Source: Nemertoderma westbladi (lineage: Eukaryota; Animalia; Xenacoelomorpha). Taken from it: DNA of 64,000 bases. This document shows positions 18,811 through 62,255 of this stretch, in pieces. The stretch lies in the NCBI GenBank assembly GCA_032718475.1, contig JAUCBJ010002996.1, positions 1 through 64,000 of the forward strand. The letters run 5' to 3'. Numbering within the stretch: the first letter of the stretch is position 1; every line of letters begins with the position of its first letter. The notes beneath the pieces are model-generated. The model made no database searches and was not told where the DNA came from. It saw only the letters and a list, made by a program, of their open reading frames with translations. A program made the position numbers and the translations under genes.

Positions 18811-19149
18811 TATACAATCTGAACAGGCTTACACGCCTTCTGCTCAATATTGGCCTACAAACAAATAAAACTGACAGAAATAAGTAAACCATACAAAGGA
18901 ATAAGGGGTGATCAATCCCTAATCCCTTAGCAGCCTACAATATACAATATATCACAATCGAAATAATACTGCTGTACCTGTACTGCAGTAAGTACCGGTA
19001 CGGGTGATCAGGCAGTCAGGCCTACTGGTTAACGGTCGACCGGTACTTTAGCTTTATTGCCTACCGCAATACAGAAGCAATATCTGCTATTGTTCTTTAC
19101 CAGAACAATATTAAACTGCATTTAGTGCCTACACTGCAATACAGACTAA

Positions 19150-19160
19150 ATATCCGTTAT
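19150..19160 (-). other. PBS position: ATAACGGATAT, complementary to LTR sequence at 19934-19944
   Basis: No TGG-initiated tRNA PBS after the 5' LTR; perfect 11-nt complement inside the LTR. Confidence 0.5.
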
Positions 19161-20741: not shown

Positions 20742-22815
20742 ACATACTTAAATCTATCGTAAATATTTTAATATTTACCTTACTTCATTGTCTCGTACTT
20801 AAATTTACCGTAAATATTTACCTTACTTCATACTTAAATCTCCTCTAATATTTACCTTACTTCATACTTAAATCTACCGTAAATATTTTAATATTTACCT
20901 TACTTCATTGTCTCGTACTTAAATTTACCGTAAATATTTACCTTACTTCATACTTAAATCTACCGTAAATATTTTAATATTTACCTTACTTCATTGTCTC
21001 GTACTTAAATCTACCGTAAATATTTACCTTACTTCATACTTAAATCTACCGTAAATATTTACCTTACTTCATACTTAAATCTACCGTAAATATTTTAATA
21101 TTTACCTTACTTCATTGTCTCGTACTTAAATTTACCGTAAATATTTACCTTACTTCATACTTAAATCTACCGTAAATATTTTAATATTTACCTTACTTCA
21201 TTGTCTCGTACTTAAATTTACCGTAAATATTTACCTTACTTCATACTTAAATCTACCGTAAATATTTTAATATTTACCTTACTTCATTGTCTCGTACTTA
21301 AATTTACCGTAAATATTTACCTTACTTCATACTTAAATCTACCGTAAATATTTTAATATTTGCCTTACTTCATTGTCTCGTACTTAAATCTACCGTAAAT
21401 ATTTACCTTACTTCATACTTAAATCTACCGTAAATATTTACCTTACTTCATACTTAAATCTACCGTAAATATTTACCTTACTTCATACTTAAATCTACCG
21501 TAAATATTTACCTTACTTCATACTTAAATCTACCGTAAATATTTACCTTACTTCATACTTAAATCTACCGTAAATATTTACCTTACTTCATACTTAAATT
21601 TACCGTAAATATTTACCTTACTTCATACTTAAATCTACCGTAAATATTCACATTACTTCATACTTAAATCTACCGTAAATATTTACCTTACTTCATACTT
21701 AAATCTACCGTAAATATTTTAATATTTACCTTACTTCATTGTCTCGTACTTAAATCTACCGCAAATATTTACCTTACTTCATACTTAAATCTACCGTAAA
21801 TATTTACCTTACTTCATACTTAAATTTACCGTAAATATTTACCTTACTTCATACTTAAATCTACCGTAAATATTCACATTACTTCATACTTAAATTTACC
21901 GTAAATATTTACCTTACTTCATACTTAAATCTACCGTAAATATTTTAATATTTACCTTACTTCATTGTCTCGTACTTAAATCTACCGTAAATATTTACCT
22001 TACTTCATACTTAAATCTACCGTAAATATTTACCTTACTTCATACTTAAATTTACCGTAAATATTTACCTTACTTCATACTTAAATTTACCGTAAATATT
22101 TACCTTACTTCATACTTAAATCTACCGTAAATATTTACCTTACTTCATACTTAAATCTACTGTAAATATTTACCTTACTTCATACTTAAATTTACTGTAA
22201 ATATTTACCTTACTTCATACTTAAATCTACCGTAAATATTCACATTACTTCATACTTAAATCTACCGTAAATATTTACCTTACTTCATACTTAAATTTAC
22301 CGTAAATATTTACCTTACTTCATACTTAAATTTACCGTAAATACTGTATTTACCTTACTTCATACTTAAATCTACTGTAAATATTTACCTTACTTCATAC
22401 TTAAATCTACCGTAAATATTCACATTACTTCATACTTAAATCTACCGTAAATATTTACCTTACTTCATACTTAAATCTACCGTAAATATTAACCTTACTT
22501 CATACTTAAATCTACCGTAAATATTTACCTTACTTCATACTTAAATCTACCGTAAATATTAACCTTACTTCATACTTAAATCTACCGTAAATATTTACCT
22601 TACTTCATACTTAAATCTACCGTAAATATTTACCTTACTTCATACTTAAATCTACTGTAAATATTTACCTTACTTCATACTTAAATTTACTGTAAATATT
22701 TACCTTACTTCATACTTAAATCTACCGTAAATATTTACCTTACTTCATACTTAAATCTACCGTAAATATTTACCTTACTTCATACTTAAATCTACCGTAA
22801 ATATTTACCTTACTT
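20742..22815. repeat. 35-bp minisatellite with 51-bp variant units
   Basis: Unit AAATCTACCGTAAATATTTACCTTACTTCATACTT, more than 50 units; the long variant adds two 8-bp segments. Confidence 0.97.
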
Positions 22816-25517: not shown

Positions 25518-25695
25518 AGCAGCTTGATCTAGTGGTTACATTCCTGGGCTTCAATTCAGGAAGCCCTTGTTCGATCCCTAGATGGGGGCTGCACTATTTG
25601 GGCACTCTGCTTTAAATGCTGCATGCAGCGTAGCCCAACCCGAGCTTTCATCCTTGGATGGTCGGTAAATGGGAACCAAGGCAACTTGGGAAATA
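25518..25695 (+). mobile_element. tRNA-derived SINE (head plus conserved central domain)
   Basis: A-box-like TCTAGTGGTTA, B-box GTTCGATCCC, then CCAACCCGAGCTTTCATCCTTGGATGGTCGGTAAATGGGAACCA, resembling the CAGCCTTCCATCC...GGTCGGTAAATGAGTACC domain of widespread animal SINEs. Confidence 0.65.
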
Positions 25696-25696
25696 T

Positions 25697-26857
25697 AGTG
25701 GAAGGGTTTACTGTGAAAGATCACACATGGTGGTGAACAGGCATTCCTGTAGGAACCAGAGTGGAAGGGTTTACTGTGGGAGATCACCCGTAGTGGTGAA
25801 CAGACATTCCTTTAAGTAACAGAGAGGAAGGGTTTACTGTGGAAGATCACTCATGGTGGTGAACAGGCATTTCTTTAGGAAACAGAGTGGAATGGTTTAC
25901 TGTGGAAGATCACCCATGGTGGTGAACAGGCATTCCTTTAGGAAACAGAGTGGAAGGGTTTACTGTGGAAGATCACCCATGGTGGTGAACAGGTATTCCT
26001 TTAGAAAACAGAGTGGAATGGTTTAATGTGGAAGATCACCCATGGTGGTGAACAGGCATTCCTTTATGAAACAGAGTGGAAGGGTTTACTGTGGAAGATC
26101 ACCCATGGTGGTGAACAGGTATTCCTTTAGAAAACAGAGTGGAATGGTTTAATGTGGAAGATCACCCATGGTGGTGAACAGGTATTCCTTTAGAAAACAG
26201 AGTGGAATGGTTTAATGTGGAAGATCACCCATGGCGGTGAACAGGCATTCCTTTATGAAACAGAGTGGGAGGGTTTACTGTGGAAGATCACCCATGGTGA
26301 TGAACAGGCATTCATTTAGGAAACAGAGTGGAAGGGTTTACTGTGGAAGATCACCCATGGTGGTGAACAGGTATTCCTTTAGAAAACAGAGTGGAATGGT
26401 TTAATGTGGAAGATCACCCATGGTGGTGAACAGGCATTTCTTTAGGAAACAGAGTGGAATGGTTTACTGTGGAAGATCACCCATGGTGGTGAACAGGCAT
26501 TCCTTTAGGAAACAGAGTGGAAGGGTTTACTGTGGAAGATCACCCATGGTGGTGAACAGGTATTCCTTTAGAAAACAGAGTGGAATGGTTTAATGTGGAA
26601 GATCACCCATGGTGGTGAACAGGCATTCCTTTATGAAACAGAGTGGAAGGGTTTACTGTGGAAGATCACCCATGGTGGTGAACAGGCATTCCTGTAGGAA
26701 CCAGAGTGGAAGGGTTTAATGTGGAAGATCACCCATGGTGGTGAACAGGCATCCTTTAGGAAACCGAGTCGAAGGGTTTAATGTGGAAGATCGCCCATGG
26801 TGTTGAACGGGCATTCCTTTAGAAACGGAGTGGAAGGGTTTACTGCGGAAGATCACA
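25697..26857. repeat. 63-bp minisatellite (~18 copies)
   Basis: Unit AGAGTGGAAGGGTTTACTGTGGAAGATCACCCATGGTGGTGAACAGGCATTCCTTTAGGAAAC; a single dispersed monomer at ~31170-31222. Confidence 0.97.
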
Positions 26858-28640: not shown

Positions 28641-30548
28641 ATTTTTAACCTACAATTCTGGAATAAAGATTTGACTTTTTCCTTACAAATAGAAGTGAAA
28701 TAAAGACAAGTTACTTTCCTAAAATGAAGCCTTTTTAATTCCAAATGAGACAAGAGGGGGGGGGGGGGGGGGGGGGGTAGGGGGTGGGACTAGACCCAAA
28801 TCCCATCTCTCAAAAAAGTGGCCAAAGTAGGGTTAAAAAATAGTGCTACAACTTGAAAACTTCCAAATATTTTTAAAACCCTTTTCATTATTAGGAAGAC
28901 AATAGATTTTTAGGAAAAGACGTAAAATTTCCGATTCCCAACTGCGTTCGTTTCAGAGTTACTGTATAACAAATAAACCACGGGGGTCATATTGACCTCC
29001 CACCCGCCCCCCCCCCCCCCCCCCCGGGTTTCATAGGGTTAATTCTTACCAATATCCATAGCGATGAAAGTGGTAACGTTTACAAGTACTACTGTACCTG
29101 TAAGAGTTGTGAGAATAAATCTGTGGTGGCTCCGGTGCTAGATATGGTTTACATCGTGAAAAAACGGTGTGGAAAGGCAAAATCGTGCGGAATAAAATAC
29201 ACAGTATTATTTCGCAACTTTTAAAATTTAACTCTGTAGAGGCCTACTCATTTGCCGCTAGTTGAGGCCAGTTTTACAAAATGACAACGAGTACGAATAA
29301 TATTGAAGGATAATTGATACCTAAGTGATTATTGAAATGGTTTAATGTTTCGCTTAGCGTTAAGATCGTTAGCTTTTTAATGTGAATTTAGAACACATCA
29401 TTTCGGAAAACTTCAAAGTTTTTTTTAATGATAACTATATGCCACTCCCACTATGTTATACTGTCAGTAGATGCTGCTTTTAGATAGTGTGTTAGGGTAG
29501 GGTCTTACGGTAAATAACGCGGTACAGACATTCACAATCAAACTCAAAATAGCAGTATTCGAGATTTGGGTTTGGAGATTTGGGGTACTTGAAGACGCGA
29601 TGTTAGGTACAGTACCAATGTACCGTCCAATGTCCGTTTATAAATAATATATTTTTATTTCATTTTTTATTTACTTAATAAAGTAAGATTTTTTGACCTA
29701 TTAAAGTGAAACTAATTTTTACCCATGTAACTTTTTATTAAAGTTGATAATATGGTCGTTCACTGTTTATTTATTTACGCCTTAAATTTCGAAGTACGGA
29801 GGCGACAACCAACAATAAGTGTTTAATAAATACAACGGAGGGGCGGGGCAATCACATAGAATATAGTTGCATTATTATTATAATTCTTTAATTGTTATTG
29901 TATAATATTATTCGGGTTGAAACTACTTAACCTTTTAATATAATATAACGGTGCCAAGTTATTAGCTTTCTCATATCGCCACCTGTCATCCATTATTGTA
30001 CTTCAGTTCAAGTATAATTAATTTAAATTTAAATTTGTCTGAATAGAGAGGCCAGAAAAGTAGATAAAAAGTGAGTTAAACGTAACTTGGCGCAAAATGA
30101 ATGCAAACACCAACTATATGCTTAGTGGGTTTAAAAAATTAATTTAATGTTATTTGAAACTTTAACTTTAACTTTTACTCTAAGAGACCAGATTGCAGTT
30201 ATTTAACCAAAACAATAAACAAAACTTACTTTACTTTAACTTAATTTCTTATTCGACCATATTCGCAGTTGAGATCAATTTTTCACTTGCAGTCACTGGG
30301 CGCCACTATATAATATAACCATTTAGTCTTTATTTCAAATAAGAATTACAAGGATTTACACGTGACCACTATTAAACTAACTTTAAACAAAAACAATTGA
30401 TTAATATAATTACACCTTTCTTTCTAATTATTGGCTTAGTATGTGGTGACTATTTATTTAAGAATGGTAATATATAGTTTATCTTTGAAACATACCACAA
30501 TCTAATGTAATATAGGCATATATAAGAGGGAGCTCAACATCAACTTAC

Positions 30549-30712
30549 ATACTTACCTGGCACAGGGGTTAACCACGATCAAGAATGCGGTTCCCCCAGG
30601 GTGAGGCCCTTGCATTGCACTCCGCTTGGGTTGACCCCTGCGATTTTCTCAAATCGAGGAAACTCGGGTGCTAAATTTGTGTTAGCTGGAGCTTGCGTTC
30701 GCGCAGGCTCCT
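30549..30712 (+). ncRNA. U1: U1 snRNA, canonical
   Basis: 5' ATACTTACCTGG, loop I GATCAAGAAT, U1A loop ATTGCAC, stem III, Sm site AATTTGTG, stem IV with TTCG loop; 164 nt. Confidence 0.97.
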
Positions 30713-33301
30713 TACAATAAATAAACAAGAAATAACGAACCTGTGTGATTTTCTCTGTACTCTCTTTCTTGTCGTGTCGTACTTTATTGTGGTATAAAAC
30801 CCGCAGCGAACATATTTTGTGGCCATGTATTGCCACAGGGACTACGTAACATTGCAAGGTGAAGTGTTATTAGAGTTTAATTTCATTCTATTTTATAGTG
30901 CTTGTTTAAGTGTTTATCTGAACTTCCTTTTCCGTCTGCTGTATAATTTTATGGTATTTCCGTTGTAAAGTCAGGAAGTAATGTTGTAAAGTCTGGAAGT
31001 AATGTTGTAAAGTCTGGAAGTAATGTATCTAAATAAGTGAAACTACCTACTAACTAACTACACTACACAATATAACGATTTAACTTTTACCTATAATGTA
31101 TAGGCCTAATAATTAATAATATTCGTCATGTTCTAGTTTATTCCAGAATAATCTTTGGTTGTCTTTGTTAGAGTGGAAGGGTTTACTGTGGAAGATCACA
31201 CATGGTGAACAGGTATTCCTTGGCTTAATCTGCTTTGGTTGTAGTCAGGCAATGGAAAATTTCTGATGCTTTTTTCTAACAATTTATTTTTATTTCAATT
31301 ATATTTAGTGTTTGTGAAATTGTAATAATTGTTCTCCAGGAAAGTTATCATACGTAGTATCCCTATTATTTACTCCAGCATACCTGCATGCCTATTAGAA
31401 TGATGAGGATTTTTTAGCTGATATATGCTGTGATTTGTTGTACCTAACCACCCCCCCCCCCCCCCCCCCCCCCCCATTCCCCATTCTTCGATTTTAACAA
31501 TTAATAATGTTAAACATTCGAGTTATTCACATTTAGATCTACAGTAAGTAATGCATTTTCATTTGGCAATCGGGTATATAAAGTTCATTGATACATTGTC
31601 GCAGTTACATTCAGCTACTTGGCAACGGCACCCATCTTTGATACATTGTTTCAAGTATAATATAGAAAAATTAGCCCTGGGATATATATAATTAGCATTA
31701 GTCTTTTTGTATGATTTACCGGTATGCTTTTAATGTCCAATATAGCTTATTAAATAGGCAACATTGTGAAAGGTCGTCATGACATTATAATTCAATATTC
31801 ACTCTTCAACAATTTGTCATTAGATATTAATTAAAGTTCCCCGACTCCTTTCCCAAACTCACTACTGTATTTAGCAGTTTTAATTTTTTTAATTTTTAAC
31901 CTAAAACATCGTATTTTTTAATCGATTAATTATAATTTAAATCTTGCAAGTTTTTCCAAAATTACTGGCTATTTTATTGCTTGGCAGTAATATTTTTTGT
32001 TTCTAAAATAAATCTTAATGAAAATAATTAAATGTAATAATTCATATATATGTATATATATATAATATGAATAAATATATTAATTAAATTTTGTAACTAT
32101 TGTACTAACTGGTATTTACTACTACCAAGCAAGGTTAGCTTGAGCTTTTTAACATCTTGGAATTTATTTTTGTAGCCCCTTGACAAAACTACTATGAAAG
32201 AGGCCATCAATGTTCTTTCCTCAAAATCCACGCAAATAATGCCTGACGACTAGCAATAATAATAATGTTACCTGTTCTATTCACTTTCGTTTATTGTTTT
32301 ACTTAGAATAAAGTGCCACTGTAACCTACTCCTTTAACTTGATTAATAATTTAACATTTAGACGAGATAATAATTCGTCGAGCTCGAGATGGAATTTGCG
32401 TTAATTAAGTCTTGTCTCCAAAAGTTTAACATAAACGTTGGCTGTTTGCACAATTAGGTCACCAAAATTGCTTTTGGTTGGGAGCTGCAGGCCTATGTAC
32501 AGGTTCAATAACGTCTGCCTTGGGATTTACAGAAGCGTCATCCCTGCCTTATAGTTAACAACCAAGAGAGATGAGCCTTAGGGTTAATAACTCCGGTGTT
32601 CCACAGCTTTAGAGCAGAAGTTTTAGGTGGTAGTTGTAGGAAAGAGGGACCCTAAAACAGAATGCAATTATTGTTGTTATGGTGATTTATCTCAGTTAGC
32701 TCACTCAGTCAAGCGCCAGGGTTTAGATGTGAAAGTAGGATCTTCGATCCCAGATGAGGTCTTTTTAGTTAATCTTAAGTTTCGATTTAAAGTTTAGGCA
32801 GTTTTATTTATCTATACTGTAAACCCAAGCTTTTATAATATTTATAAATATTTTGAGCGAAATATAAATTATAGATGCATTCCATATATTATTTGGTAGA
32901 AGAAGAAATTCCTTTTTTCTGACAATTCCAAAAAGTTGTTCCAGCTGGTGGAAATTTAAGACATTTTTTGGTTTTCTTCATATATTGGCTCAAAATAACT
33001 TCGTTAATGCAATGGTAACAGAACATACAGAACATACAGAACATACCAACAGGTATTTTTTACATGCGTGGCTTAAATTGTGTAATGGAATTACTTGGCA
33101 AGAAGGGAAGTAGAAAGAGTGGGATTACATTGTGTATGTGGTCATTTCTGTACCAAAGAATCTTATATACGCATACGGCTATCAAGTAAGGTAGGGTTGA
33201 GCACAGTGGCACCAGATTATGGTATTGACAGATATAGGAGGCCATGAGGAGGTAAATTGAGGACCTACATCAGGTAGTATTTCCAGGTCTACCCTTTACC
33301 T

Positions 33302-33813: not shown

Positions 33814-35730
33814 ATGAATTCCTCGTCTAGCCCACCCACAACTCTGCCCCGATTGGCTAAGTCCAGCAGGAGGGCGAGTTCACTAAAGTATAATACAGCC
33901 CAGAGAGTGACGACGGGTCCAAATCTGCGTAAATTATTAGCTGGTCGCAGATATTCCCAGAGTCTAACTATTCCGGTAGTTATATCCAAATCAGAAAGCG
34001 ATTTACGGAATACATCGAACAGTTCTTCATCAACCACGATCGCCGTACCTGATGATTCGGAATCTCTCGATGGGATCAACAGTCAGCCCCTCCCGCTCAA
34101 CCAGGACTTCAGACACAGACGAGGAAACTCTGTAAGCAATCCGCTACGCAGTGCCCGAGCAGACCTCGTTAGAGGCAGCACAGAGTTTTTCCAAGTCCGC
34201 ACAGAACTTCAGTCATCGAGTTTACAACTGCCGAATCCAGCGAGACAAACGAAGCCACGCAACATATCTCCAGAACAGAAAGAAAAACCTGTCGAAACAA
34301 CTGCAGAAGTGGTACAGGATAATTCGGTTCAACTGCCGATAGAAAGGCAAGGAATATACAAAGATAAATACGTCGAAGAACAAATAGAATTGTTGAGACG
34401 GAAATATTCTCACACTAGTGGTCCCAGGTTGTTCCAGGAAAGGACAATAATTGGATGTGTGTCTAATGAACCATATTCAACTCGGGGTTTTATTAATCAA
34501 GAAGAGTTACAAACACCGAAACCAAAAGTGGAACACCGTAAAGTAAAACCTACCAAGGAAAATATTCACAAGGTTAAAAGATCGCCGTCTAATCCCGAGC
34601 ATATTACTAATCCGTCTAAAGTTTTCTTACCTCACAGACTCGCAAATGACACTAAACCCGTACAATCAAAATTAAAAGACTCAGAGGTTCAACCAGAAGT
34701 TATTATTACCTTGGTGGACTCCTCAAATTGTGACGGAAAAATGAGAAAAGGTTCTGCCATAGAAGATTCTAATTTAAATATTCCGAGGTACAAACCCACT
34801 GAATCCACGGGTGCTACATCAAGCACGACAGACACATTGTCGCCGAATAGTCAAAGGAAGATCGTGCGATTCGATGTAGAGCCGAGAAAATCACAACCGC
34901 CAGGTGGTAAAGGTACGAGTCTACCTCCTTTACGGTTGGGGGGAGAACGACCGGCTAGCGACAACGATGTCCCTCTAGATATCTCAGCGAATTTGCGATT
35001 AGAAGGAATAAAAGAGCTTCAGCAGTTACTAAACGAAGCAAAGGATTTGGCGAGAGACACAGAAAGTGATCTGCGTGAGTTTCGCAGTAAAAAGACATCA
35101 AAACAAGTTGAGAAACGCAATTATTCGAAGATTAATAGAGGAAAGACTGTAAATATAACTTTAAATAAAAATATAAAACATAATGTAACTGAGAGCAAGT
35201 CTACAAAATATTATCCCGAACTAAATCATACCGTGGGCAATAGTGAAGGACGCGAATGCAATACTGAGTTGCGCGAAAACAATCCAAAACTAAGCGAATC
35301 TACTGGGAATAAAGTCATAGAAAACACCAAAGGAATGGCAGACGACGCAGAACACAAAATCCTTGACGTGGCTGAGTCGCCCAGCAGTCCAATAAACGAT
35401 CAACTCGAAACTTCAACGATTTCATTGAAAAATGATATTAATCCTCCAATAATCGCAAATCACATAAAGCAAATATCAGTGCGGGAAAAAGTCTACCACT
35501 TTAGGCGCGATAGTGGTGAAGGGTATAGCGCGATGCCGCCCTCGGATGGCACAGCTGTGCCGGATATGGGCCACCACCATATCGCATTATTGGCAAATTT
35601 TAACTTACAACCAGATGTGGATGAGGACAACTGCCTCACTGATGTGCAAATGGAACGAATTACTGAGTGGCTAGCTGGCGTAGATAAAGCTGAAGACGGG
35701 ATACCCGCATGTGTCGTAGAACCAAAGTAA
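33814..35730 (+). CDS. Uncharacterised 638-aa, largely low-complexity/disordered protein
   Basis: Long ATG-initiated ORF in AT-rich DNA with higher GC; S/P/K/N-rich; short coiled coil (LEGIKELQQLLNEAKDLARDTE) and C-terminal MERITEWLAGV motif. Confidence 0.75.
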   Translation: MNSSSSPPTTLPRLAKSSRRASSLKYNTAQRVTTGPNLRKLLAGRRYSQSLTIPVVISKSESDLRNTSNSSSSTTIAVPDDSESLDGINSQPLPLNQDFRHRRGNSVSNPLRSARADLVRGSTEFFQVRTELQSSSLQLPNPARQTKPRNISPEQKEKPVETTAEVVQDNSVQLPIERQGIYKDKYVEEQIELLRRKYSHTSGPRLFQERTIIGCVSNEPYSTRGFINQEELQTPKPKVEHRKVKPTKENIHKVKRSPSNPEHITNPSKVFLPHRLANDTKPVQSKLKDSEVQPEVIITLVDSSNCDGKMRKGSAIEDSNLNIPRYKPTESTGATSSTTDTLSPNSQRKIVRFDVEPRKSQPPGGKGTSLPPLRLGGERPASDNDVPLDISANLRLEGIKELQQLLNEAKDLARDTESDLREFRSKKTSKQVEKRNYSKINRGKTVNITLNKNIKHNVTESKSTKYYPELNHTVGNSEGRECNTELRENNPKLSESTGNKVIENTKGMADDAEHKILDVAESPSSPINDQLETSTISLKNDINPPIIANHIKQISVREKVYHFRRDSGEGYSAMPPSDGTAVPDMGHHHIALLANFNLQPDVDEDNCLTDVQMERITEWLAGVDKAEDGIPACVVEPK

Positions 35731-44678: not shown

Positions 44679-47328
44679 AGCTATTATGATATTAGTAGGT
44701 ATGTGAAATATTTTTATTTAAAAGTTCAAAATTGGCTATTGAGTTTACAGTAGCTAGTGTTGTAGCATTGTGATAGAATAAAACAATACAGTGTAACTAA
44801 GAAACAGGATTACTACCTTTATGACCACAAATTTAAAACTCGATACATTTCAGTGGCACAACATTTAAAAATTAATGAATTATGTAGCAAATTATTTTAA
44901 TAATTAGGCTGACAGATTTGTTAATAAACAAAACGAAATATAGATTAGATATTCTAGATGAATATGTACCGATAATTTTAACCGGTGTGAGCCGCTTGCA
45001 GAATTTGTGTTGTTGTTGTCATTTTCTATTTGTTTTAAATTCATTCGCATTTATTGGTCTTGGCGTTGATGTATCAAAATGATCAACCTTTTGACCAAAG
45101 CTAAATATTAAACTCAGCCAAAAAAAAACAGTAAAAATAATTATATCTCAATTTCTCCAGCATATTTTCTTTCTCAAAACAAACACATTTTGTTGTGCCT
45201 TCGTATGTAATAAAATATAATTTTCCAGAAAACATATTTAATTTAGCGGAAAACGTCCATCCCCAAACCCAGATTAATATAATTTAGATGTTTACAGCTC
45301 ATTAATTAATTGCTATAATTTATTCTATAAATATTATGATTCTAAACAAATAAACAACGAACTATAACGACCAAACTGGGAATGGCAATAATCGAGCGCT
45401 CCTTGTGGGGTACGGACAAAGTTTGTTTAAAACTCAAATTACCCACCAACATAAGTTACAAAACTCGGAATTCATAGACTACTGGATCAATTAAACGACA
45501 ATTTTGGTTGTGGAAATACGATGGTCTTAAACACTTAAAATAAAAGAGATATGCAACTGGTATGGTATGGCTACTGAGACACAATTACCATCAAAACACC
45601 ATAAAAAGTATTTCTAGCAACTAACATAGAATAAATCATATTATATATACCGAACCGACTAGATTTACTCGTATAATAATAATTTATCTAACACAATGTA
45701 ATGTAGCACAATAATCGTATATCCCCAGAACTACAACAAGCCTCTCAAATTAAGTTTAATATTCAATACTCAGGTTGAAAACATTCAATGGAATTAATTG
45801 ATATTTACTGCATCCAAATTGATATAATATTGAGACAGCGGGGAAAACTTGACGCAAATCCCATCTCGGAAAAGTAATATCTCGCCTCGGCGAATCAACA
45901 ATTTTGCATGTTAATTGTATCCAAAATTGTTAATTCTTGATTATTTTAATTATCCATTAAGAGAAAGGAACACGTTACGGGTTACAGTGGTACGTTATTA
46001 TAATCAAAACAATAAACGGAAGTAATTAGAACACGTGAGTTATATTATTGCGAGTAATCGTCTGTTATTTGCATCAAGATTCCCCCACTAAATTCTAATC
46101 TAGAAATTCTAAACTACCCTGTTCAATTAATTGAACTCCAATTATAATTAAACTTGTACACTAGTAGCTAAATGATACAAAACAATGTTTAAACAAACGA
46201 AAATAATATAGGCGTTACTGGGAACATCGAGCAAAAAGCATGAATGAATATAGCAATCGTATGAAATGTTTCTTTCTAACTTATTAATAAGTTTTCGTGA
46301 ATTTGGTCGGAGTTACCAGATCGTAAATATAATTAAGTCTGATATCGATAACTCAAACTATCTTTAGGCGACATGTGGGGATAATTTCGGAATCTATGAG
46401 GAACTTGTTATAACAATATCAAACAAAAACTATATCGCATATCAAACCCGATGTCAATAGCTTCATTTACAATGGACATTTTATCTTCCTTCATAAAAAA
46501 TAACACAGAATTTAAATATAAATAATCCTGAGACAAAAAAAAAAGGAGAGATTTTATATTTTTTAAGAGGTTAATAGAATATACTAAATGATTCCATTAA
46601 TTTTACCCATATTGTTAGCTACTATTGCATTCGATACTATTATAGTCCATAGGGGACGTTCCCTTTGTGTTTCACACGTTGAAAGGGTTGGAGGTATTCG
46701 CGTGACACTTTCTGTGCGGTTGGGGGTTTAGGCGCTAAGAGGATATCTACATCTCTCCACAAAGGTGAGGGGGGGGGGGGGGGGGGGGGTCTGTTGGTCT
46801 GTTGGGTCGCCCGACAGTAACAAACAATAATAGTAACAATTAATATTAATAAATAGTAATAATCACAATGTCCGTCCCGGCTAATTTAAGTCGCTATCTT
46901 ATTGTATAAAATACGGAACATAAATACATTCAGGTAAATCCAATCTACAAACCACAAATATCTAGAAATTAAATAAGAGTGATTAATTTCAGGTCCATTT
47001 AATGTGTCACTATAAATTCTATTTATAAAGCTGGCCAAGTAAACTAGTTAACAAAAAACGTACAATCGGCATCATCATGCAATAAAGAACATATGAAACC
47101 CTCTAAGCCCCAACCCACAGAGATCAAACTGGGTCGAATTCCAGTGCTATGAGTGGAGAAGCTGATAGAGTAGACATGTTACTATGTATTATGTAACAAG
47201 GGGTGTAGCTCGGAAGCTACTAAATTAATATTATTATATCTCGTAATATATCAACAATCCGATCGGATTAAAAGCGAAAAGAAACCAAACCGAGATATAA
47301 TAAAACGGGGTCGCCTAGAAACAACCAA

Positions 47329-48630
47329 TCAACAGCGGGTCTCGTACAAACCCGACTTACCGATGTATCGAACCCATTTGATGACGTCGTGATCGGAATA
47401 ATTGAGTTTCGATTCGAACACCTTGAGGTAGCGAACCTTGAGCCCACTGGGGGCGAACGGCACCTCGAAACTCATCGATATCGGTGGCCGCGCCCACTTC
47501 TTCTTATCCGCGGACGCGAGCAACTCGATCTCCGCCGATATCTGGCTCTCCTTCATCCCGCCCATCCGCTTTATCTTCCAGAGAATCGCGTTCTCCGACG
47601 CTTTGTACTTGGCTTTCCCTTTCATACAGATGACCTGAACGCCGCTGGTGTTTAACGGCGTCGGGATTCGAACCTCGATCTTCTGGGCCAACAACGACGG
47701 TTTGAAGTTGCTCTTGAGCACGACTTTAACCTCCATCTTCGATCGTCCGACCTCCCGGACTAACGGAATGACCCGGAATGGTAGACTGATATCCTTGGTG
47801 GTTCGGTACCGCATTAACTCGTACTCCCCATCCGGCGGAATGAAACTAATAGATCGCTCTGTCTCGAACTTAGATAACTTCACGCACTGATGGAAAGTGC
47901 AATCGTCTATGGCGATGGACGTTTTATTCTGTCGGAAGGCGTCATCGGATGACGATTTCCCCTGTTTATCCAACGTTATCTTGTCGTTCAAACCGAATTT
48001 ACATTCCGGCATTCCAGACAGATACGACTTCATCATGACCTTACCGGAGACGTGAGCGCTAAGCACCTGACCCTGCGGCGACATGAGCAGATTAACCGAT
48101 TCTAGGACGTCGAGGAACAACTCATTCCGTCGGTATTTGATTCCATCTCGTCTCCAACCGATCTGCCCGGTAACTTGCTTCGTTATCTCAGCGTGCTCCT
48201 CTTTAGTGACTGATTTAATCCCTTGTTGCGTTATGTAGGTTTTTAACGTGCCGGTATCTGTATGCTGAGGGTAGCCGTAGTCGAGAATCTCGTCTAAAAG
48301 TTCGTAAATTAAAACGAAATTATTTTTTACATTGTCCTCGTTAATTTTACCGAAATACGAGGACATTACCGAGCAAACCTTAAGGATAAACTCGAACACG
48401 AGGGTAGAGTTGACGTTCTGTTTGGTAACGGCGGCGAGCCAGATGTTCCCGCGACGGATGTGGAAGAAGGAGGTTCTCGCGATGTTGGTTACCGGACTGC
48501 GAACCTGCTGACGGGCATGGATGACGTTGACCCGGAACGCGTCCACTGCGTTGCGACCGATGTCATCCCGATAAATACGGGAGATCAGAACCTCACCTTT
48601 GTGGTTGTATATAAACAGTCCGCCTATCAT
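47329..48630 (-). CDS. AP2M1: AP-2 complex subunit mu (clathrin adaptor mu2)
   Basis: [47 protein letters not shown]..., [24 protein letters not shown], ends [17 protein letters not shown]; full-length 433 aa in one exon. Confidence 0.98.
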
Positions 48631-48646
48631 TCTGTTATTCTGTGTC

Positions 48647-49221
48647 CTATATCAGTAAAGTATATCTTTACCTATATGACAGTGTGCAGCAGTATGATCC
48701 TGATATCAGGATATAGCTGTATATAGGCCTACTGCTGTACTGGCTGACTGGTATTGTCAGATTGTGTTGTGATATTGCAGTATTGATATATTGAAATAGA
48801 AAAAACCAATGATTAACGAAACGACAAACTGACAAATTCTTCCGGCTGTACGTTCCGGGAATGATAGTAAATGTTGAAATGGTAATAACTGTAGATCTGT
48901 TCCCGTCAGCCCGTTGGCAGTTGGTTGCCAGGTTGCGTTTAGGCGTTGGTCCCTGTTCAGTAGTGTAGTAGCAGTAAGTAGCCTTTTACACTCAACAGTC
49001 AGACAGTTGTAGCTATGGTACCGGTACCCACTAACAGCTGAACAGTACAGCAGTACTGCACTATGCCTGTATGCGATGCGTGCTTGTGCTAGCAGGCTAG
49101 ACCTATGCCAGTATGCCTGTACAGCTGTATGACAGTACATGCAGTTATGATGTTGGGTAGTCCTATGCAGCTATGCCAGTATGCTCCTGTCCTGTAATCC
49201 TTGGATGTAGGTAACACTTAC
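48647..49221 (-). other. Possible 5' UTR intron of AP2M1
   Basis: Minus-strand GTAAGT at 49221 downstream of a GC-richer segment; TACTGATATAG acceptor 16 nt before the ATG. Confidence 0.3.
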
Positions 49222-49737
49222 ACTCAACACTAGCGGTCACCCGGTAACTACAGCCGCCTGACTCCACAATAGCAAAAGGTGGTGAGATTTGCCTCTGCTG
49301 TGGGAGTGGGTTAAAATTCCGAAATAAGACTGCAAGTTGGTAATAAATAATAATAAATTAATGGACTATTTTGAGTCTATTTACCATCTAATTTAGTTAC
49401 ACTACATCGCCACGACATACCTAATAAATGAAGCTGACAATAGGAAACTATATCGGTACCAGTAGCCGATAGGCACTGGCCCCAATAAATTGTTGTATTG
49501 ACTTTTTCACAGATTTATATACAAATGTTACTTAATAAAACTTTAATACTTTAAAGTTACCACCAACATATTAAAAAACAATTTCTGATGATTAATATAT
49601 TTTCTGGTTTTCATCATGTACTATAAATTATATTAAGGTGTTATTTCAAATAAAGCCATTAGACATATAAATTATTCCAGCTTGTCTTTTTCAGAGATTC
49701 TTCCTCTCCATATTAATTCCGTCATACTACATTCAGC

Positions 49738-49900
49738 ATACTAACCTGGCACAGGGGTTAACCTCGCTCATGAATGTGGTTCCCCCAGGGTAAGATCCTC
49801 GCATTGCACAACGCCTGGATTGACCTCTGCGATTTTCTCAAATCGAGGAAACTCGGGTGCTAAATTTATGCTAGTGGGGCTTGCGTTCGCGCAGGCTCCT
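49738..49900 (+). ncRNA. U1: U1 snRNA variant (5' AUACUAACCUG), copy A
   Basis: Full-length U1 architecture; U6A in the 5' splice-site arm, loop I GCTCATGAAT, stem II GATCC/GGATT, Sm site AATTTATG. Confidence 0.93.
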
Positions 49901-50764
49901 TCATATAATTACATATTATTTAATTGTTTATTGCGGTTTAATTAATTAATAATTGTTATTCTAATTGTCATATTCTTAATAAGATACACAAAATAACAAA
50001 ATTTAAATAATAATTTTAAAAAATATATATAAATATAAAGCTAAAATATGACTATAGTCTATCCCGTGTTGTTGCTTTTGGTAGATTCAGCTCTTCTGTA
50101 ACCTGGGTTTTAGTGAAAACCTGGTATTCTACACATCCGGGTTAATTGTAAAGTGAAAGATAACAGCTGGAAGTCTGCTATAACCCCTTTTATTTACTTT
50201 TAATGCTCCTCTCTCTTTAATGCTGCTTTTATTATACCATGTCGGGGTAAAAAATACATGGATTGTAAATTGTTTTTTTTATGAAAAAAACACCCTTTAC
50301 TCCCAGTTATCATATTGATGATTGTTCATTGTTGTTATTACTTATTATAAAGAAGGTTAATTAGTAAGGTAATAAAATGTTTTTATAATATGTGTTATTG
50401 TTGAAAGTTAATTTTTTATATTCATCTGTATACAGAGCAGCTGTGAGGAACCGATCTGGCGGTGGCAGTACACTTACCAGTAAATAACAGCAACAGGTTT
50501 GTAGGGCCTTCGCGCAGGACTTAGCAAGCAATATTATCATACGGCACGCCACCTATCATCGGTGTCTAGTCATCCCTTAGCGCGAGACTGGAGACGCAAA
50601 GTATCATTGTTGGACGAGTATTATTATCCAAAATTATCGCCTGCACCGAACGCAAACGCAGTAAAAGTAAGTAACAAGTAGAAGCGAAGCAACTTACGCA
50701 ACTTCAAATAAGGAATTAATTACAGAGCAAAAGGGAAGTAAATACTATTAAGCATAATGAAGGA

Positions 50765-50933
50765 AGGAGCCTGCGCGGACGCATTAATTAGCCCCACTAA
50801 CATAAATTTAGCACCCGAGTTCCCTCGATTTGAGGAAATCGCAGAGGTCAATCCAGGCGTTGTGCAATGCGAGGATCTTACCCTGGGGGAACCACATTCA
50901 TGAGCGAGGTTAACCCCTGTGCCAGGTTAGTAT
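50765..50933 (-). ncRNA. U1: U1 snRNA variant (5' AUACUAACCUG), copy B
   Basis: Same diagnostic changes as copy A; stem III substitutions keep pairing; small insertion in stem IV. Confidence 0.9.
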
Positions 50934-51674
50934 GAACGGCATGGTAAGACGTGATTTAAAAGATTTAAATATTGAAGAATATTGGTGTACCGCAAATTAT
51001 AATAGCTTATTAAAGGAATGTTTATAAAAGTAATATATTAATTGTTACGTTATATTATAAAACTGGTTTATTATATTTATCATCTTGTAAAGATAGTAAA
51101 TTACATATAAGCATAAGTATTCTATTATAAAATATTATAATTGTGTTGGTGAAGTTTAGGCCAACATTCTTGAGGCCCCATAATTTTTCGGTTGAAATAT
51201 CGTATACGTTTAGAACAGCATAGGTAGCCAAGGTGATCTCGAATGAAGCGATATTTAAAACACCACTCTCATGATAGCTTTTTGACATAGTTAATCTATA
51301 ATACCACATCATTCATTATCCATGCGACAAACGTTATCTTTGAAGCGCTGTCACCACATTTTCACAACAGCGCTTTAACCTAAAACCAAAATACTCTGAT
51401 TGAACAGCATCGCGCTCTCACAGCGCTATCACTCCGAAGTGTGTATCGTTGCGTGGCAATAAAAAGGCGCTAAGTCGAGCTTTTGAAAAAATGAGTTATT
51501 TATACCACCAGATAGCTGATGAAATTTGTCATCGATGGGTACTATTTGTTATTGTGATTTGTAGGCCTATATCCTTTTCAATATTCATAGCCTGTATAAT
51601 AAATTTAATTTGATTACATTTTATCATTTTGAATAGGAATTCCAATAACTGAGTTAGATCCTTTTAAACAGAAC

Positions 51675-53717
51675 CCTTTTAGCAGCTGCAGAAACAGTTC
51701 CTGTATACCCTCGAAACAGGAAAAGGGCCCCCTGGACTGACAACAAAATCCAGAAGTGCCGAAATGACCTTCATAAGGCGCAGAAAGAGACCCGACTCAA
51801 ACAGACTACAGCGGCCAAGAATGCAGTTAAGGCTGCATCTAGGTCCCTGAACAGGCAGTACTCTGCTAATCTACATGAGCTAATAAACCAACAGGTTGAT
51901 GCCATCAATGATGCTGACGACAGCAGGCAATCATCCCAGGCATGGAAATCGATCAATCTGCTTACTGGGCGGAAAAGCCAACCAACCACCAAGGTTAAGG
52001 CTGAATCACCAGCCGATCGCCTCAATGGTTGGAAAGCCCACTTTGAAAAGCTCCTCAATAAGGACAGGGTATTGCCTGATAACTTTATAGAAGTAAAAGT
52101 GTCTGAGTCTGTACTCCCAGATATTCCCATTGGCGATATCTCCTTTGCAGAAGTGAAGGCTGCTGCAAAGAGCATTAAGACCAATCGTGCCAGTGGAGTA
52201 GATGGTGTTCCCCCTGAGGTCTTTAAAATACCTGAGTGTTTAAAGCTCATCTATCCCATCATAGTAGACATGTACCGAACAACAAGAGTCCCACAAGAAA
52301 TGAAAACAAATAAGTTGGTGCCAGTTCCCAAGAAGGGCAACCTAACACTCTATGGTTCTTTTCGGGGAATCTCATTGATCTCGATTGCTGCAAAGCTATA
52401 CAATAGGATTCTATTAAATCGCATCAGGGATCCCATTGAGAGACTGCTCCGTGGAAATCAGAATGGGTTCCGTAAAGGTCGTGGGACCATGGAGCCCATT
52501 TTGGCACTTAGAAGGATAATTGAAGAGTTATCAAAAAAGAAAGACAGGCATCTGGCTGTTATCTTTGTTGACTTCTTCAAGGCCTTTGATTCAGTCTCTC
52601 GCTCACGTATGTTCAGCATACTTTTATTATATGGGATTCCTGATGAAATTATTGCAGCAATCAGATCAGTATACGATGGTTCGACAACATTTGTGTCTAC
52701 TGTTGACGGTGACACAGAACCATTTGAAGTGTTATGCGGCGTCCTCCAAGGAGACACACTTGCACCATTCTTGTTCATTATTGTGGTTGACTATGTTCTA
52801 CGCATGTCCTTAGATCATTATAATGATGATGGGGTGATGATAACTCCACCTACTGGCTCCAGAAGTCGAGGAAATCCTGCCAAGTACCTAACTGATCTAG
52901 ACTTTGCTGATGACTTAGGAGTACTCTCAGAATCATTAGAGGGAGCCCAACGGCTCCTCAGCTCATTAGAACATGCTGCTTCTAGTGTTGGTCTTTTTAT
53001 TAACTCCAGAAGGACCAAAATTCTGACAGTTAACTTTGAAAGTCCTCAGCAAGTCTCTGATCGGATGAGCATAAGCTCAAAGGATGGTATGCTTGAGCAT
53101 GTGGACAACTTCTGTTACCTGGGATCATGGATCCGGAAGTCAGGTGAGGACCTTCGAATACGTAAGGGAAAGGCATGGGCAGCCTTGAATAGGCTTCCAG
53201 GATTTGGAAGTCACCGAGAATTAATCGGAAACTTATTTAGAGCAGCAGTAGTTCCAGTACTCCTCTACGGGAGTCCATGCTGGGCTCTAACTGCTGAGGA
53301 CACCAAATCTCTGGATGGCACATTCACAAGAATGCTACGCCGGGTTCATTGTGTCAAGTACAATGCACACATCTCCAACCAGACACTATATAACATTGGA
53401 GGTGTCTCATTGGTTCCCCCAAGCTTGACACTAGAACAAAATCGCCTCCGCTTTGCAGGACATTGCTTTCGCCGGAGGACCAGCCAGTGCATAATCTTGT
53501 ACTTTGGCAGCCTCATGGAGTGAATAAGCATGGTGGACAGCCCATGACTTTCTTGAGACGCATCTTAAAGGACACTGGCCTTAAAGATGCGGATGATCTA
53601 GCAAATGTCATGGGTGATAGGGAGTTGTGGCGGTGCAATTTTGTTGACAAGCCGGCACAGCATTCTTAAAAATGCAGCAGCAATGCAGCATGCCGATCCT
53701 AGTAGTAGTAGTAGTAG
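51675..53717 (+). mobile_element. 5'-truncated RTE-clade LINE with near-intact RT
   Basis: RT motifs PVPKKG, RGISLISIAAKLYNRILLNRI, QNGFRKGR, FVDFFKAFDSV, GVLQGDTLAPFLF, DLDFADDL; (TAG)n tail; TSD TTTAAACAGAAC at 51663-51674 and 53718-53729. Confidence 0.95.
51676..53669 (+). pseudogene. RTE reverse transcriptase ORF (truncated, frameshifted near 53470)
   Basis: Frame is open upstream of 52072 to the insertion edge; the C-terminus EDQPVHNLVLWQP...DRELWR lies in a different frame (53463-53669). Confidence 0.85.
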
Positions 53718-55460: not shown

Positions 55461-55697
55461 ACAATGATCAACCTTCAAACACAGTTATTATTAACACTGT
55501 GATTAACAGTTGAGATTGTGGGGAGAGAAAATCACACTCGTGAACGATATTCATACTACTGCACTGTAGAGATCCAACAAAATGTTATTTGCGAATGTGT
55601 AATTAGCGATAACAAGTTATATGTATTACTTATTTATTATATAAAGTAATATGCAAAAGGCTCAGCTCACCCCACCCCTACTTTTGTTTATATTGTA

Positions 55698-55861
55698 AGG
55701 AGCCTGCGCGAACGCAAGCTCCAGCTAACACAAATTTAGCACCCGAGTTTCCTCGATTTGAGAAAATCGCAGGGGTCAACCCAAGCGGAGTGCAATGCAA
55801 GGGCCTCATCCTGGGGGAACCGCATTCTTGATCGTGGTTAACCCCTGTGCCAGGTAAGTAT
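55698..55861 (-). ncRNA. U1: U1 snRNA, canonical
   Basis: Matches 30549-30712 except one substitution seen; related upstream and downstream flank motifs. Confidence 0.97.
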
Positions 55862-56308
55862 GCAAGTTGATGTTAACTACCTCTTATATACAGGTTTACT
55901 ATATTACATTGTCGTAAGGTGGTAACAAAATTATTTAATATGACTAAAGAATAAGTATTAGATTATATTTAAACTGGACTATTGTCAAGATAGGAGTAAT
56001 TATATTTATCATTATCAAATATTTGTGTTAAAAATTAGTATATGTGCAGCGCTATTAAAATGCCTATAGTTGCTTTAGTACATATTCGGATATATATTAA
56101 TATTATGTTGGCCGGAAATTTAGTTGGATTTAAGGGCTCTTGCAAGGACCTGTAGACTGGTAGACGCAGTAGGGTGAACCCTACTGCGTGGCGATAACTA
56201 TGTTCCCTGAAGTTAAGCGCGCAGCAAGTTTCATGTAACACCACCTTGGCATCAGTGTTATAAATTAATTTACATAAACCTTGATACTGACAAAGTGGCT
56301 ATGGCAAC

Positions 56309-57110: not shown

Positions 57111-59156
57111 TTAAAGTAAACTGTTACTACGAGTTTCGTACAGAAATAACCCTTTTCTTTCTCCCTTTTTATACACAGTAGCGATCCCACCGAACCCGTT
57201 TACTGGCACGGCACCCAATCGGGATACTTTAGTTCCGTTTGGAACGTATTCATAAACCCCCAGATAACGATTCCCTTCTTTTTCTAGAGGAACTAATAAA
57301 TGCCCTGATCGATTCTGCAGTAGTTCCACCGCCCCAATAGGGATGGATTTACCGCAATCAAGAACGGATCTCCTTCTATTCAATACGAGAGTAACGTTGG
57401 GTCCGGTGCCGGTAACCTTATAGCCACATAGGGATAACTTATGTTTGTTAGGTTGGAATAATCCGACGGTTAAATCGACCATTAAACTATAGCTACCGAT
57501 GGTAGTGGAAAGGAGTTTCGCAGGTACTTCGATACGGGATATCCATTCCTTAGAACAATCGCGCCGGTCCAGTTTAATCACGCAGTTGTTTGACGTTAGC
57601 AGATAATCACCATGGATACCGACCATTGGGCCTATTGGTTGACCGCGGTATCTCTCTTTACCAAGACACAAATGTTTGACATCACCTCCGTCTGGGTTTA
57701 TTACAAATACACATTCTTCCGTTGCGGCGATCCAGGTTTCCTTGTAGTAATTATCTAGAAACTTAATCTGTTTCTTTTCGGCGTTGCAGTCGGTTTCTAG
57801 AATAATAGGTTCACCACGTAGAGATAAAGAATCGTCAGCGTTGAATTCGTAAATATAAATCCTGTTAGTTAGGGAATCGGTTATCCCCAGGTTCCCATAG
57901 CAACCACCAATGGGACCGACTTTACCGATTCCCATTCTACGACAGTCGATCCGACATGTTTCCTTTAGCGGCGGATCTCTTAATAAAATATCTTCGTATT
58001 GGCGGAGGTTAAAACGTTTCTCAACCTCCAGTTCTTCTAATGGAACCGCCATCTTCTCTCCTCCATCGCCGCTATCTATAATATCAATGCGGCCGGTAAT
58101 CCCTTCCAGGTCCTTCTGTAACTCAACCGGAACGAAACGAATTTCCGGTACCTCTACAACTTTGATCTCAGAAATCCGCTGCTCGATTTCTTTGTATTTC
58201 TTTAGAATCTTCTTGGCTTCCGCTATTTCTTTGATCAACTCGGAATTCTTTATCTTCTTATAATATTCGTTTTCTTTAGGAATTTCGATATTAGCGAGAA
58301 TTTCCTGCGCTGCTGATATATTTCCCGCCGTTTCGGTATTTAAATCCCGCACCTGCTTCATCATTGTATCTTCGGCTGCTTTTAATTCGTTGTATAAATA
58401 TTGGAAGTGTTTGCGGATGTCGTCGGTGGAAACTTTAGTGACGTCATCTAAATCCCCCAGAATTCCCTCCAACACTGATAGTTTAGTCTCCAATCGTGTT
58501 CTCAACTTTCCCGGACCTTCTATTAAGTTTCGTCTGATTGAATTACAGACTTCGTTCGTATACCAGACCTCGTGATCTTTAGAATCACCGTCAACGGAAT
58601 GACATTGGCGACAAACAGTACATTCGCATTTCTCGCAATAATGGCGCTTGTTTAGACCGTGGATTAGGCACAGTTCGGGATCCGGTTCTTTAGATCCACC
58701 AACAGCTCCTTGTTTATCGAGATCTACGTCAGTAGACCAGCATCCCGTCGGTTCTCCAGCTGCTCCCGAATTAGGTGGATTGGCGACACAGACACAGACG
58801 TGGTAAAGTTTGCACTTTCTGCACAATTCGGTCTCGCAACGTTCGCAGGGATTCGTTCCTTTGTTTTTTCCGCACTCGTCGCATGTTTTTTCTTTTCGAA
58901 TCATATCAATCATAGAGGTGACGACATGACTTACTGTCGGCAAAGAATCCAGTTTCTCTACCTCGGTGGGATTCCGACAACGAGGACATTCCAACGAAAA
59001 TCCATCACCGTGTTGTTTAGAAACTTTTACGATACATTTGTAACAGAAACAGTGGGAGCAGTTGATTAAAACTCGGGGCTGATGTAAAAGTCGTAGACAT
59101 ACGGAACATTCGAACTCTCGCTCTACTTGCTCCCGGTCCATTGACGCATTGTGCAT
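57111..59156 (-). CDS. TRIM (RING, two B-box-like, coiled coil) E3 ligase with divergent beta-rich C-terminal domain
   Basis: RING CSVC...CSHCFCYKC...CPRC; B-box-like CDEC...CERC...CRKC and CLIH...YCEKC...CRQC...H; coiled coil; beta-strand-rich C-terminus (NHL-like by inference); single coding exon. Confidence 0.9.
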   Translation of the reverse strand: MHNASMDREQVEREFECSVCLRLLHQPRVLINCSHCFCYKCIVKVSKQHGDGFSLECPRCRNPTEVEKLDSLPTVSHVVTSMIDMIRKEKTCDECGKNKGTNPCERCETELCRKCKLYHVCVCVANPPNSGAAGEPTGCWSTDVDLDKQGAVGGSKEPDPELCLIHGLNKRHYCEKCECTVCRQCHSVDGDSKDHEVWYTNEVCNSIRRNLIEGPGKLRTRLETKLSVLEGILGDLDDVTKVSTDDIRKHFQYLYNELKAAEDTMMKQVRDLNTETAGNISAAQEILANIEIPKENEYYKKIKNSELIKEIAEAKKILKKYKEIEQRISEIKVVEVPEIRFVPVELQKDLEGITGRIDIIDSGDGGEKMAVPLEELEVEKRFNLRQYEDILLRDPPLKETCRIDCRRMGIGKVGPIGGCYGNLGITDSLTNRIYIYEFNADDSLSLRGEPIILETDCNAEKKQIKFLDNYYKETWIAATEECVFVINPDGGDVKHLCLGKERYRGQPIGPMVGIHGDYLLTSNNCVIKLDRRDCSKEWISRIEVPAKLLSTTIGSYSLMVDLTVGLFQPNKHKLSLCGYKVTGTGPNVTLVLNRRRSVLDCGKSIPIGAVELLQNRSGHLLVPLEKEGNRYLGVYEYVPNGTKVSRLGAVPVNGFGGIATVYKKGERKGLFLYETRSNSLL

Positions 59157-59495
59157 TGTATGATTGTAGTCCAGTAGTCTGGCCTGGCTGTTTCTGTGTT
59201 TGGTACCAGTAGTTATGTAGTAAGTTGTGGTTTAGTTCAGTACTCAGGTAGGCTACTGCAGTACTGCAGTAGCCTACTCTAATACTGTAATATGCTAATG
59301 CAGTAATCCTCTAGTCCTGTGCGTTCAGCTGTAGTCATTCATAAGCTTAAAAAAACGCAATAATTTTTATTGTCCGTTTAAATCCTTTTTTTGTCTTTTA
59401 TTTTTTATTTTTTATGTCCTCCAAAAATCTAATGTTAGGTTCCATGCTACCGGTTTCTCTACTGCTGTTCTCTCAGGCTATCAGTACCGGTATTA

Positions 59496-61487: not shown

Positions 61488-62255
61488 GTTGTTTTGGTTA
61501 GAAAATCCCGCCTCTGTAACCTGCTCCTTTCCCCCGCCTCTGTAACCTGCCCCTTTCCCTCAATTAGTTAAATGATCGTTTATTGTTTTGGTTAGAAAAT
61601 ACCGCCTCTGTAACCTGCTCCTTTCCCTCAATTAGTTAAGTGATCGTTTATTGTTTTGGTTAGGGAATCCCGCCTCTGTAACCTGCTCCTTTCTCTCAAT
61701 TGTTAATGTTATCATTTATTGTTTTGGTTAGAAAATCCCGTCTCTGTAACCTGCTCCTTTCCCTGATTTGGTAAAGTGACTGTTTATTGTTTTGGTTAGA
61801 AAATCCCGCCTCTGTAACCTGCTCCTTTCCCTCAATTAGTTAAGTGATCGTTTATTGTTTTGGTTAGGAAATCCCGCCTCTGTAACCTGCTCCTTTCTCT
61901 CAATTGGTAATGTTATCGTTTATTGTTTTGGTTAGAAAATCCCGTCTCTGTAACCTGCTCCTTTCCCTGATTTGGTAAAGTCACTGTTTATTGTTTTGGT
62001 TAGAAAATCCCGCCTCTGTAACCTGCTCCTTTCTCTCAATTGGTAATGTTATCGTTTATTGTTTTGGTTAGAAAATCGCGTCTCTGTAACCTTCTCCTTT
62101 CCCTCAATTAGTTAAATGATCGTTTATTGTTTTGGTTAGAAAGTCCCGCCTCTGTAACCTGCTCCTTTCCCCGATTTGGTAAAGTGACTGTTTATTGTTT
62201 TGGTTAGAAAATCCGGCCTTAACCTGCTCCTTTCCATCAATTGGTAATTGTTTTT
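61488..62255. repeat. 67/68-bp minisatellite with three recurring unit variants
   Basis: TGTTTTGGTTAGAAAATCCCGCCTCTGTAACCTGCTCCTTTC core, about 11 units. Confidence 0.95.

Follow-up and report, generated by a model that had tools for sequence, protein, structure and literature searches.

Two U1 snRNA genes with a changed 5' splice-site recognition arm lie about a kilobase apart in the genome of Nemertoderma westbladi, and raise the question of what such variants are for. An earlier note on this DNA proposed a maintained second U1 snRNP class that serves introns with U at position +3, or redirected telescripting. Having analysed the whole 64-kb stretch (hereafter the window) together with contigs of public sequencing runs, we arrive at another answer: the first 52 nt of the variants probably serve as a spliced leader exon heading another RNA, whether joined to it in cis or in trans.

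Four U1 genes and their neighbours

U1 genes were called in the 64-kb window with the Rfam RF00003 covariance model (gathering score 69.5 bits). Four were found, all full length and above the gathering score:

49738 to 49901, + strand: var1, variant U1 gene 1, full length (RF00003 117.3 bits, model positions 1–166)
50765 to 50933, − strand: var2, variant U1 gene 2, full length, with a 6-nt insertion in stem-loop 4 (RF00003 100.9 bits, model positions 1–166; alignment)
30549 to 30713, + strand: can1, canonical U1 gene for comparison, with a latent donor GTGAGG at nt 53 (RF00003 138.5 bits)
55697 to 55861, − strand: can2, canonical U1 gene for comparison, with A53 and no donor (RF00003 134.0 bits)

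The Infernal search with RF00003 that the earlier note had suggested, run here on the window, thus places both variants above 69.5 bits, and model and alignment agree with its description of two full-length, near-identical, tail-to-tail U1 variants with A at nt 6. Both begin ATACTAACCTGG, whereas can1 and can2 begin ATACTTACCTGG; the A at nt 6 (A6) lies at 49743 in var1 and at 50928 in var2, and the two genes are convergent. They are 97.6% identical to each other over aligned letters, and 89.6% (var1) and 88.4% (var2) identical to can1. The change at nt 6 is real, but it is one of 15 substitutions relative to canonical U1 that both variants have in nt 1–133 (five in nt 1–52, nine in nt 53–92 and one in nt 93–133). 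The variants do not differ from each other in their first 98 nt, whereas five events separate their final 67 nt (Fisher P 0.01); in the alignment, stem-loop 4 of var2 has a changed tetraloop besides its insertion.

Other features of the window are as follows:

47329 to 48630, − strand: AP2M1 (AP-2 complex subunit mu), one uninterrupted 433-aa frame (best identity 87%)
About 50070 to 50250: high-copy repeat between var1 and var2 (summed contig depth 6,000–16,000 in DNA runs)
51658 to 53523, + strand: retroelement remains with a frame for a LINE-type reverse transcriptase, close upstream of var2
57111 to 59231, − strand: 706-aa uninterrupted frame that has a RING finger at its N terminus and looks TRIM-like by eye
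33814 to 35730, + strand: 638-aa uninterrupted frame without a Pfam match
13284 to 16940, − strand, with 2325 to 5251 and 16875 to 19846: retroelement remains, a DUF1759 gag-like frame and related sequence at the window start
20743 to 22815, 25686 to 26856 and 61489 to 62248: tandem repeat arrays

AP2M1 lies 2.1 kb downstream of var2 on the same strand. At a best identity of 87%, its protein has no close relative in the collection searched, and a tree built from 71 of 121 AP2M1 proteins, none of them identified as a non-bilaterian outgroup, sets the animal apart from the protostomes sampled and within none of the classes sampled.

A6 in two DNA runs and the number of variant loci

Six public sequencing runs (X1–X6) matched the window, none of them recorded as RNA and two (X5 and X6) with a share of 0.00. 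We compared the contigs of X1–X4 with the window around 46800 to 51500, and those of X1, X2 and X4 at var2. X1 is a possible source of the window itself; X2 comes from a different study. Contigs of both X1 and X2 span A6 at var2 with 0 differing letters, and an X1 contig does so at var1. The X2 contig over var1 has two differing letters, both upstream of the gene, and X3 has 13, of which 12 are placed upstream. A6 is therefore no assembly error: the contigs of X1 and X2 carry it, where the earlier note had allowed that sequencing might fail to bear it out.

Upstream flanks like that of var2 are more numerous in the runs than the window holds, a count that concerns flanks only, nt 6 lying outside the tabulated part. 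Roughly measured, and with depth not being copy number, the depth of the variant path is 2.6 times (X1) and 3.3 times (X2) that of AP2M1. Because of these extra flanks and depths, a variant locus may exist outside the window; as a rough figure, they suggest about three variant loci, one of them perhaps beyond its ends. In X4, 21 of 30 bins have depth, compared with all 30 in each of X1–X3, and neither of the two X4 records compared at var2 is a full-length variant contig; neither observation proves absence.

Fold and protein-binding sites of the variants

Of the 46 model pairs, each variant has 39 that are standard; can1 and can2 have 40 and 39. Three opposing pairs of positions (27/40, 59/82 and 63/78) are changed on both sides, more than expected by chance (P 0.005 under a uniform null, 0.011 with regional counts kept; the changes are unpolarised), and 59/82 is the only true compensatory pair among them. 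A formal pair count over the four rows, two variant and two canonical, does not beat shuffles. Unconstrained minimum-free-energy folds are unreliable here, since canonical U1 itself missed the cloverleaf.

The Sm site occupies nt 126–133 of the variants:

49863 to 49870, + strand: Sm site of var1, AATTTATG, with one change, at a position outside the Sm ring in human U1
50801 to 50808, − strand: Sm site of var2 (alignment)

Passages on the human U1 structure (PMC4383343; numbering offset by one) give the sites of the U1-70K, U1A and Sm contacts. The U1A heptamer AUUGCAC is intact, and changes in its loop affect only the last bases, described there as poorly ordered. In the U1-70K loop, judged by sequence alone, the equivalents of human G28, U30, C31 and A32, which make direct contacts, are kept, and the equivalent of A29, which closes the loop, is C in the variants. 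Stem-loop 3 is also kept. The variants thus have the length, the RF00003 score, the U1A heptamer and the Sm site of a U1 RNA, and not an arm complementary to AG|GUAAGU.

An upstream element ahead of each U1 gene

A 13-nt element, TGATWAATATAWT, occurs four times in the 64 kb, once ahead of each U1 gene at −151 to −149:

49589 to 49601, + strand: putative promoter element of var1, at −149 (TGATWAATATAWT match)
51070 to 51082, − strand: putative promoter element of var2, at −149 (TGATWAATATAWT match)
30398 to 30410: upstream element of can1 (TGATWAATATAWT match)
55999 to 56011: upstream element of can2 (TGATWAATATAWT match)

Against these four matches, 0.12 are expected by chance, an optimistic figure given that the pattern was derived from these four genes. 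In a null for the four-way motif, the score observed was matched in 2 of 300 draws, presumably since the pool contained the real upstream stretches. Over the upstream 200 nt, the alignment of var1 with var2 gave z = 2.0 and that of can1 with the variants z = 0.1–0.3. The flanks had been called largely unrelated; they are indeed mostly unalignable, but have this one position-fixed element in common. Because the element is kept while the rest of the flanks is largely unalignable, both variant promoters appear to be maintained.

An internal splice donor after nt 52

Past nt 52, both variants read AGG|GTAAGA:

49790 to 49795, + strand: internal donor GTAAGA of var1, nt 53–58 (best of 7 GT sites)
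50876 to 50881, − strand: internal donor GTAAGA of var2, nt 53–58 (best of 8 GT sites; consensus at intron +1 to +5)
49738 to 49789, + strand: candidate 52-nt leader exon, var1 copy (identical to var2 nt 1–52)
50882 to 50933, − strand: candidate 52-nt leader exon, var2 copy (exact match to an X4 contig, 0 differing letters)

The letters at +3 and +6 of this donor are variant-specific. At the same place can1 has GTGAGG, and can2 has lost the GT: its nt 53 (55809) is A, so that it is without the latent donor that can1 has at nt 53 (30601). In X1 the deep canonical contig is of the A53 type, and canonical copies may be losing a donor that the variants strengthened.

The leader contains a variant-specific ATG at nt 33 (49770 to 49772 on the + strand; 50899 to 50901 on the − strand), besides a shared ATG at nt 37.

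A contig that joins the leader to other sequence

One contig of X4 (record 18; 1758 nt, depth 384.9) matches 50882 to 50933 of the window at its positions 1696–1747 with 0 differing letters, and has all five variant-specific letters of nt 1–52; a canonical-type contig of the same run (record 17) has 18 differing letters. Past nt 52, record 18 continues for 1695 nt in other sequence. The next contig letter differs from the genomic G53, so the position of the join is unambiguous; it sits exactly at the best donor of the RNA, one position of about 164. By eye, the nt-33 frame continues across the join without a stop in the 30 letters visible there; chance could well give an open stretch of about 10 codons. 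The nt-37 frame ends directly past the join.

At the other end, 11 non-genomic letters, CCCCATGTACT (+ strand), abut nt 1 of the variant, and we take them to be the end of a template-switch oligo. They contain four G, and the genomic base preceding nt 1 is C. Template-switch oligos end in three G, and one additional, cap-templated G marks m7G-capped RNA (passages of PMC6885630). X4 is registered as 'DNA?', with no library on record, and was studied through its contigs rather than raw reads. We infer that it is cDNA from three features: an end that looks like adapter, a join placed at a donor, and AP2M1 contigs with depths of 597–708.

In both DNA runs (X1 and X2), a 176-nt variant contig with 0 differing letters crosses nt 52 unbroken. 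No loose contig end occurs at 50882 among the contigs listed for X1 and X2, a set from which some records were filtered and which does not include the X4 sample's own DNA. The 30 target letters past the join had no match at three mismatches in the 64-kb window (the best had 11 mismatches in 30), so that the 14 kb downstream of var1 and the 50 kb downstream of var2 yielded no cis acceptor. For X1–X4, the joints listed in 46800 to 51500 include none that leads from the donor to AP2M1 or to another place in that region. X4 contigs cover AP2M1 up to 48764, with length differences of 38 nt and 22 nt among runs; the X4 AP2M1 contig starts with five unaligned 5' letters and no leader. Among the two X4 records compared at var2, the leader has a single continuation. 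The simplest reading of this one contig from one run is that the join was likely made by splicing at the variant's own donor.

The canonical-type record 17, placed on 50797 to 50936, is a 699-nt contig in which a long flank lies to either side of U1, the upstream one unlike that of either variant; it is either genomic carry-over or a U1 gene within a longer transcript.

The view that the variants are maintained gains from three sides: the promoter-like element is kept, there are structure-coupled changes, and the X4 contig points to transcription of at least one variant from nt 1.

A probable leader exon, in cis or in trans

The reading that we prefer, still tentatively, is that the first 52 nt of the variants serve as a capped first exon spliced in cis to an unrelated RNA of about 1.7 kb. 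Pol II would start at the U1 promoter of a variant gene, and transcription would read through the snRNA 3' end into a downstream target. The GTAAGA donor would be recognised by the canonical U1 snRNP, and the spliceosome would remove nt 53 onward together with the intron. The leader would come from an additional variant copy beyond the ends of the window, or from var1 if the intron is longer than 14 kb. A6 would remove the RNA from ordinary donor recognition rather than retarget it.

The one continuation in X4 and the AP2M1 contig of the same run without a leader fit a single target. In contig building, an unbroken path from leader to target argues against many abundant targets. The extra var2-like flanks and the depths of 2.6 and 3.3 times that of AP2M1 fit a variant copy beyond the window. 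Against splicing in cis, the evidence comes from a single contig of a single run, and the locus that would supply the leader has yet to be seen. The would-be intron shows no decay: its fold and its Sm and U1A sites are retained, none of which a purely cis exon needs. Both copies in the window, old as their flanks are, also have the same leader to the letter, although neither shows a target nearby.

These last points lead to a second reading, possible but on the whole unlikely: a nascent, U1-derived spliced leader (SL) RNA that forms a free Sm snRNP and whose capped 52-nt exon is trans-spliced to an unpaired acceptor in one or a few mRNAs. The order of 5' exon, GU donor, stem-loops and Sm site is the layout of an SL RNA; the would-be intron retains fold and Sm site; and both loci retain the upstream element and agree in every letter of nt 1–98, yet the window holds no match to the acceptor side. 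The making of an SL RNA from a U1 fragment by an added donor and a few changes is mentioned second-hand in a passage of PMC6053224. On the other hand, the leader-to-target path is unbroken and AP2M1 lacks the leader, which speaks against many abundant targets, and the identical 5' parts could come from gene conversion. An m7G cap would account for the extra G, which is weak evidence for an mRNA transcribed directly (PMC6885630, in passages on m7G caps, with trimethyl caps outside them). Were trans-splicing the case, which we regard as conceivable rather than likely, a U1 paralogue 90% identical to U1 would have given up ordinary U1 donor recognition, acquired a strong donor at nt 52 and kept its Sm body. 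We put splicing in cis slightly above splicing in trans because only one target was seen.

Other explanations

On paper, the complementarity of the variant arm does shift as first proposed: its computed pairing is −14.0 kcal/mol with a +3U donor and −9.9 with a +3A donor. This is the starting point of the proposal that the variants form a second U1 snRNP class for +3U (GUUAGU) donors, or redirect telescripting, the leader being a by-product. It also draws on the retained fold, U1A heptamer, Sm site and stem-loop 3, and on planarian stem-cell-enriched U1 variants with a changed recognition motif, described in passages of PMC6312358. The 64-kb window, however, has no excess of GTTAGT (34 seen against 36.7 expected, in a crude hexamer count without intron annotation), the A29 equivalent of the U1-70K loop is changed, and two changes strengthen an internal donor that an snRNP has no need of. 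Few of the tested human variant U1 RNAs supported splicing, according to passages of PMC10870369. We consider this proposal improbable. To the RNA's own donor, the variant arm pairs with −5.0 kcal/mol, as against −8.9 for the canonical arm, and we infer that A6 means loss of the canonical role and not retargeting. A double role of the variant, as snRNP and as source of the leader, could nevertheless hold.

Behind its Sm site, var2 has a GTTAGT (50796 to 50801, − strand) that is the exact complement of arm nt 3–8; var1 matches at five of six letters. A constrained fold of var2 forms a helix between arm and GTTAGT, so that self-locking of the var2 arm is possible, though six pairs could arise by chance.

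The join itself might lie in the genome or be an artefact: the X4 individual could carry a U1-headed retroelement or insertion of its own, reverse transcriptase could have switched templates, or the contig could be mis-joined. U1-headed SINEs and template-switch chimeras exist (passages of PMC4494074), and the DNA comparison covers X1 and X2, not the X4 sample or X3, with some records filtered. A metagenome scan with the first 20 nt of the variant gave one match, an unrelated truncated U1 piece in the contig L001 (59 to 107, − strand), which has about nt 1–49 of U1, also with A6, and then runs into other DNA; it looks like a truncated retrocopy. But the X4 join falls at an exact GT donor, the contigs of X1 and X2 pass nt 52 unbroken, the depth of 385 is on the order of that of the AP2M1 contigs (597–708), the head is the rarer variant and not canonical U1, and an RNA that begins precisely at nt 1 would need a U1 promoter. 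A join of this kind therefore seems quite improbable to us.

That the variants are a decaying pseudogene pair with no function, their transcript being noise, is very improbable: the insertion and changed stem-loop 4 tetraloop of var2 and the 15 substitutions relative to canonical U1 would suit decay, but the bodies are 97.6% identical though the flanks are unalignable, the upstream element is kept and changes are coupled to structure.

Comparison with known systems

U1 variants with changed arms are already known in planarian and human (PMC6312358, PMC10870369 and PMC5786027, in part). Like the present genes, they are multicopy and transcribed, with a changed 5' arm and changed protein-binding loops (passages of these papers and of PMC3561869); unlike them, they are treated as variant snRNPs, and none is described in those passages as an exon donor.

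In SINEU elements and U1-headed retrocopies, a 5' piece of U1 also stands ahead of unrelated sequence, but there the joins are genomic and multicopy (passages of PMC4494074), whereas here the DNA of X1 and X2 is unbroken and the join lies at a splice donor. No genomic fusion of the U1 5' part to another body was found in X1 and X2, which represent DNA other than that of the X4 individual.

The chimeric sn-mRNAs of C. elegans arise by read-through from an snRNA promoter, as is proposed here, and have the 5' end of the snRNA on an RNA; in contrast, they retain the full snRNA along with the intergenic region, and appear on loss of Integrator (passages of PMC6390993), whereas here nt 53 onward is gone. 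If splicing in cis is the true course, a U1 gene would have turned into a promoter and first exon, and snRNA genes would be feeding new transcripts.

SL RNAs resemble the variants in design, with a short capped 5' exon, a GU donor, a downstream Sm site and the exon heading another RNA (passages of PMC6053224, PMC4824033, PMC5709842 and PMC9911081). The variants have the 5' exon, the GU donor and the Sm site, and in a single X4 contig the exon stands on another RNA at a join that the DNA contigs of X1 and X2 do not have. They differ in that the present RNA has 90% identity with U1 of the same genome and still scores above the Rfam threshold for U1, and in that one target was seen: where an SL heads many mRNAs, the two X4 records have one continuation, although rare targets could have been pruned. 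The acoel leader given in passages of PMC9911081 is of a different sequence. No natural U1-derived leader exon was found in the literature covered, little of it from subscription journals. It is an open question if SL trans-splicing has a single origin or several, and what its source was (PMC5709842, in part), and SL RNAs have been proposed to arise from a U snRNA that gains a donor (passages of PMC6053224, PMC4824033 and PMC5709842). The locus would be a living example of this proposed first step, and the parent U1 stands beside it; if splicing in trans is the true course, it would be a direct natural intermediate for the repeated origin of SL RNAs from U snRNAs.
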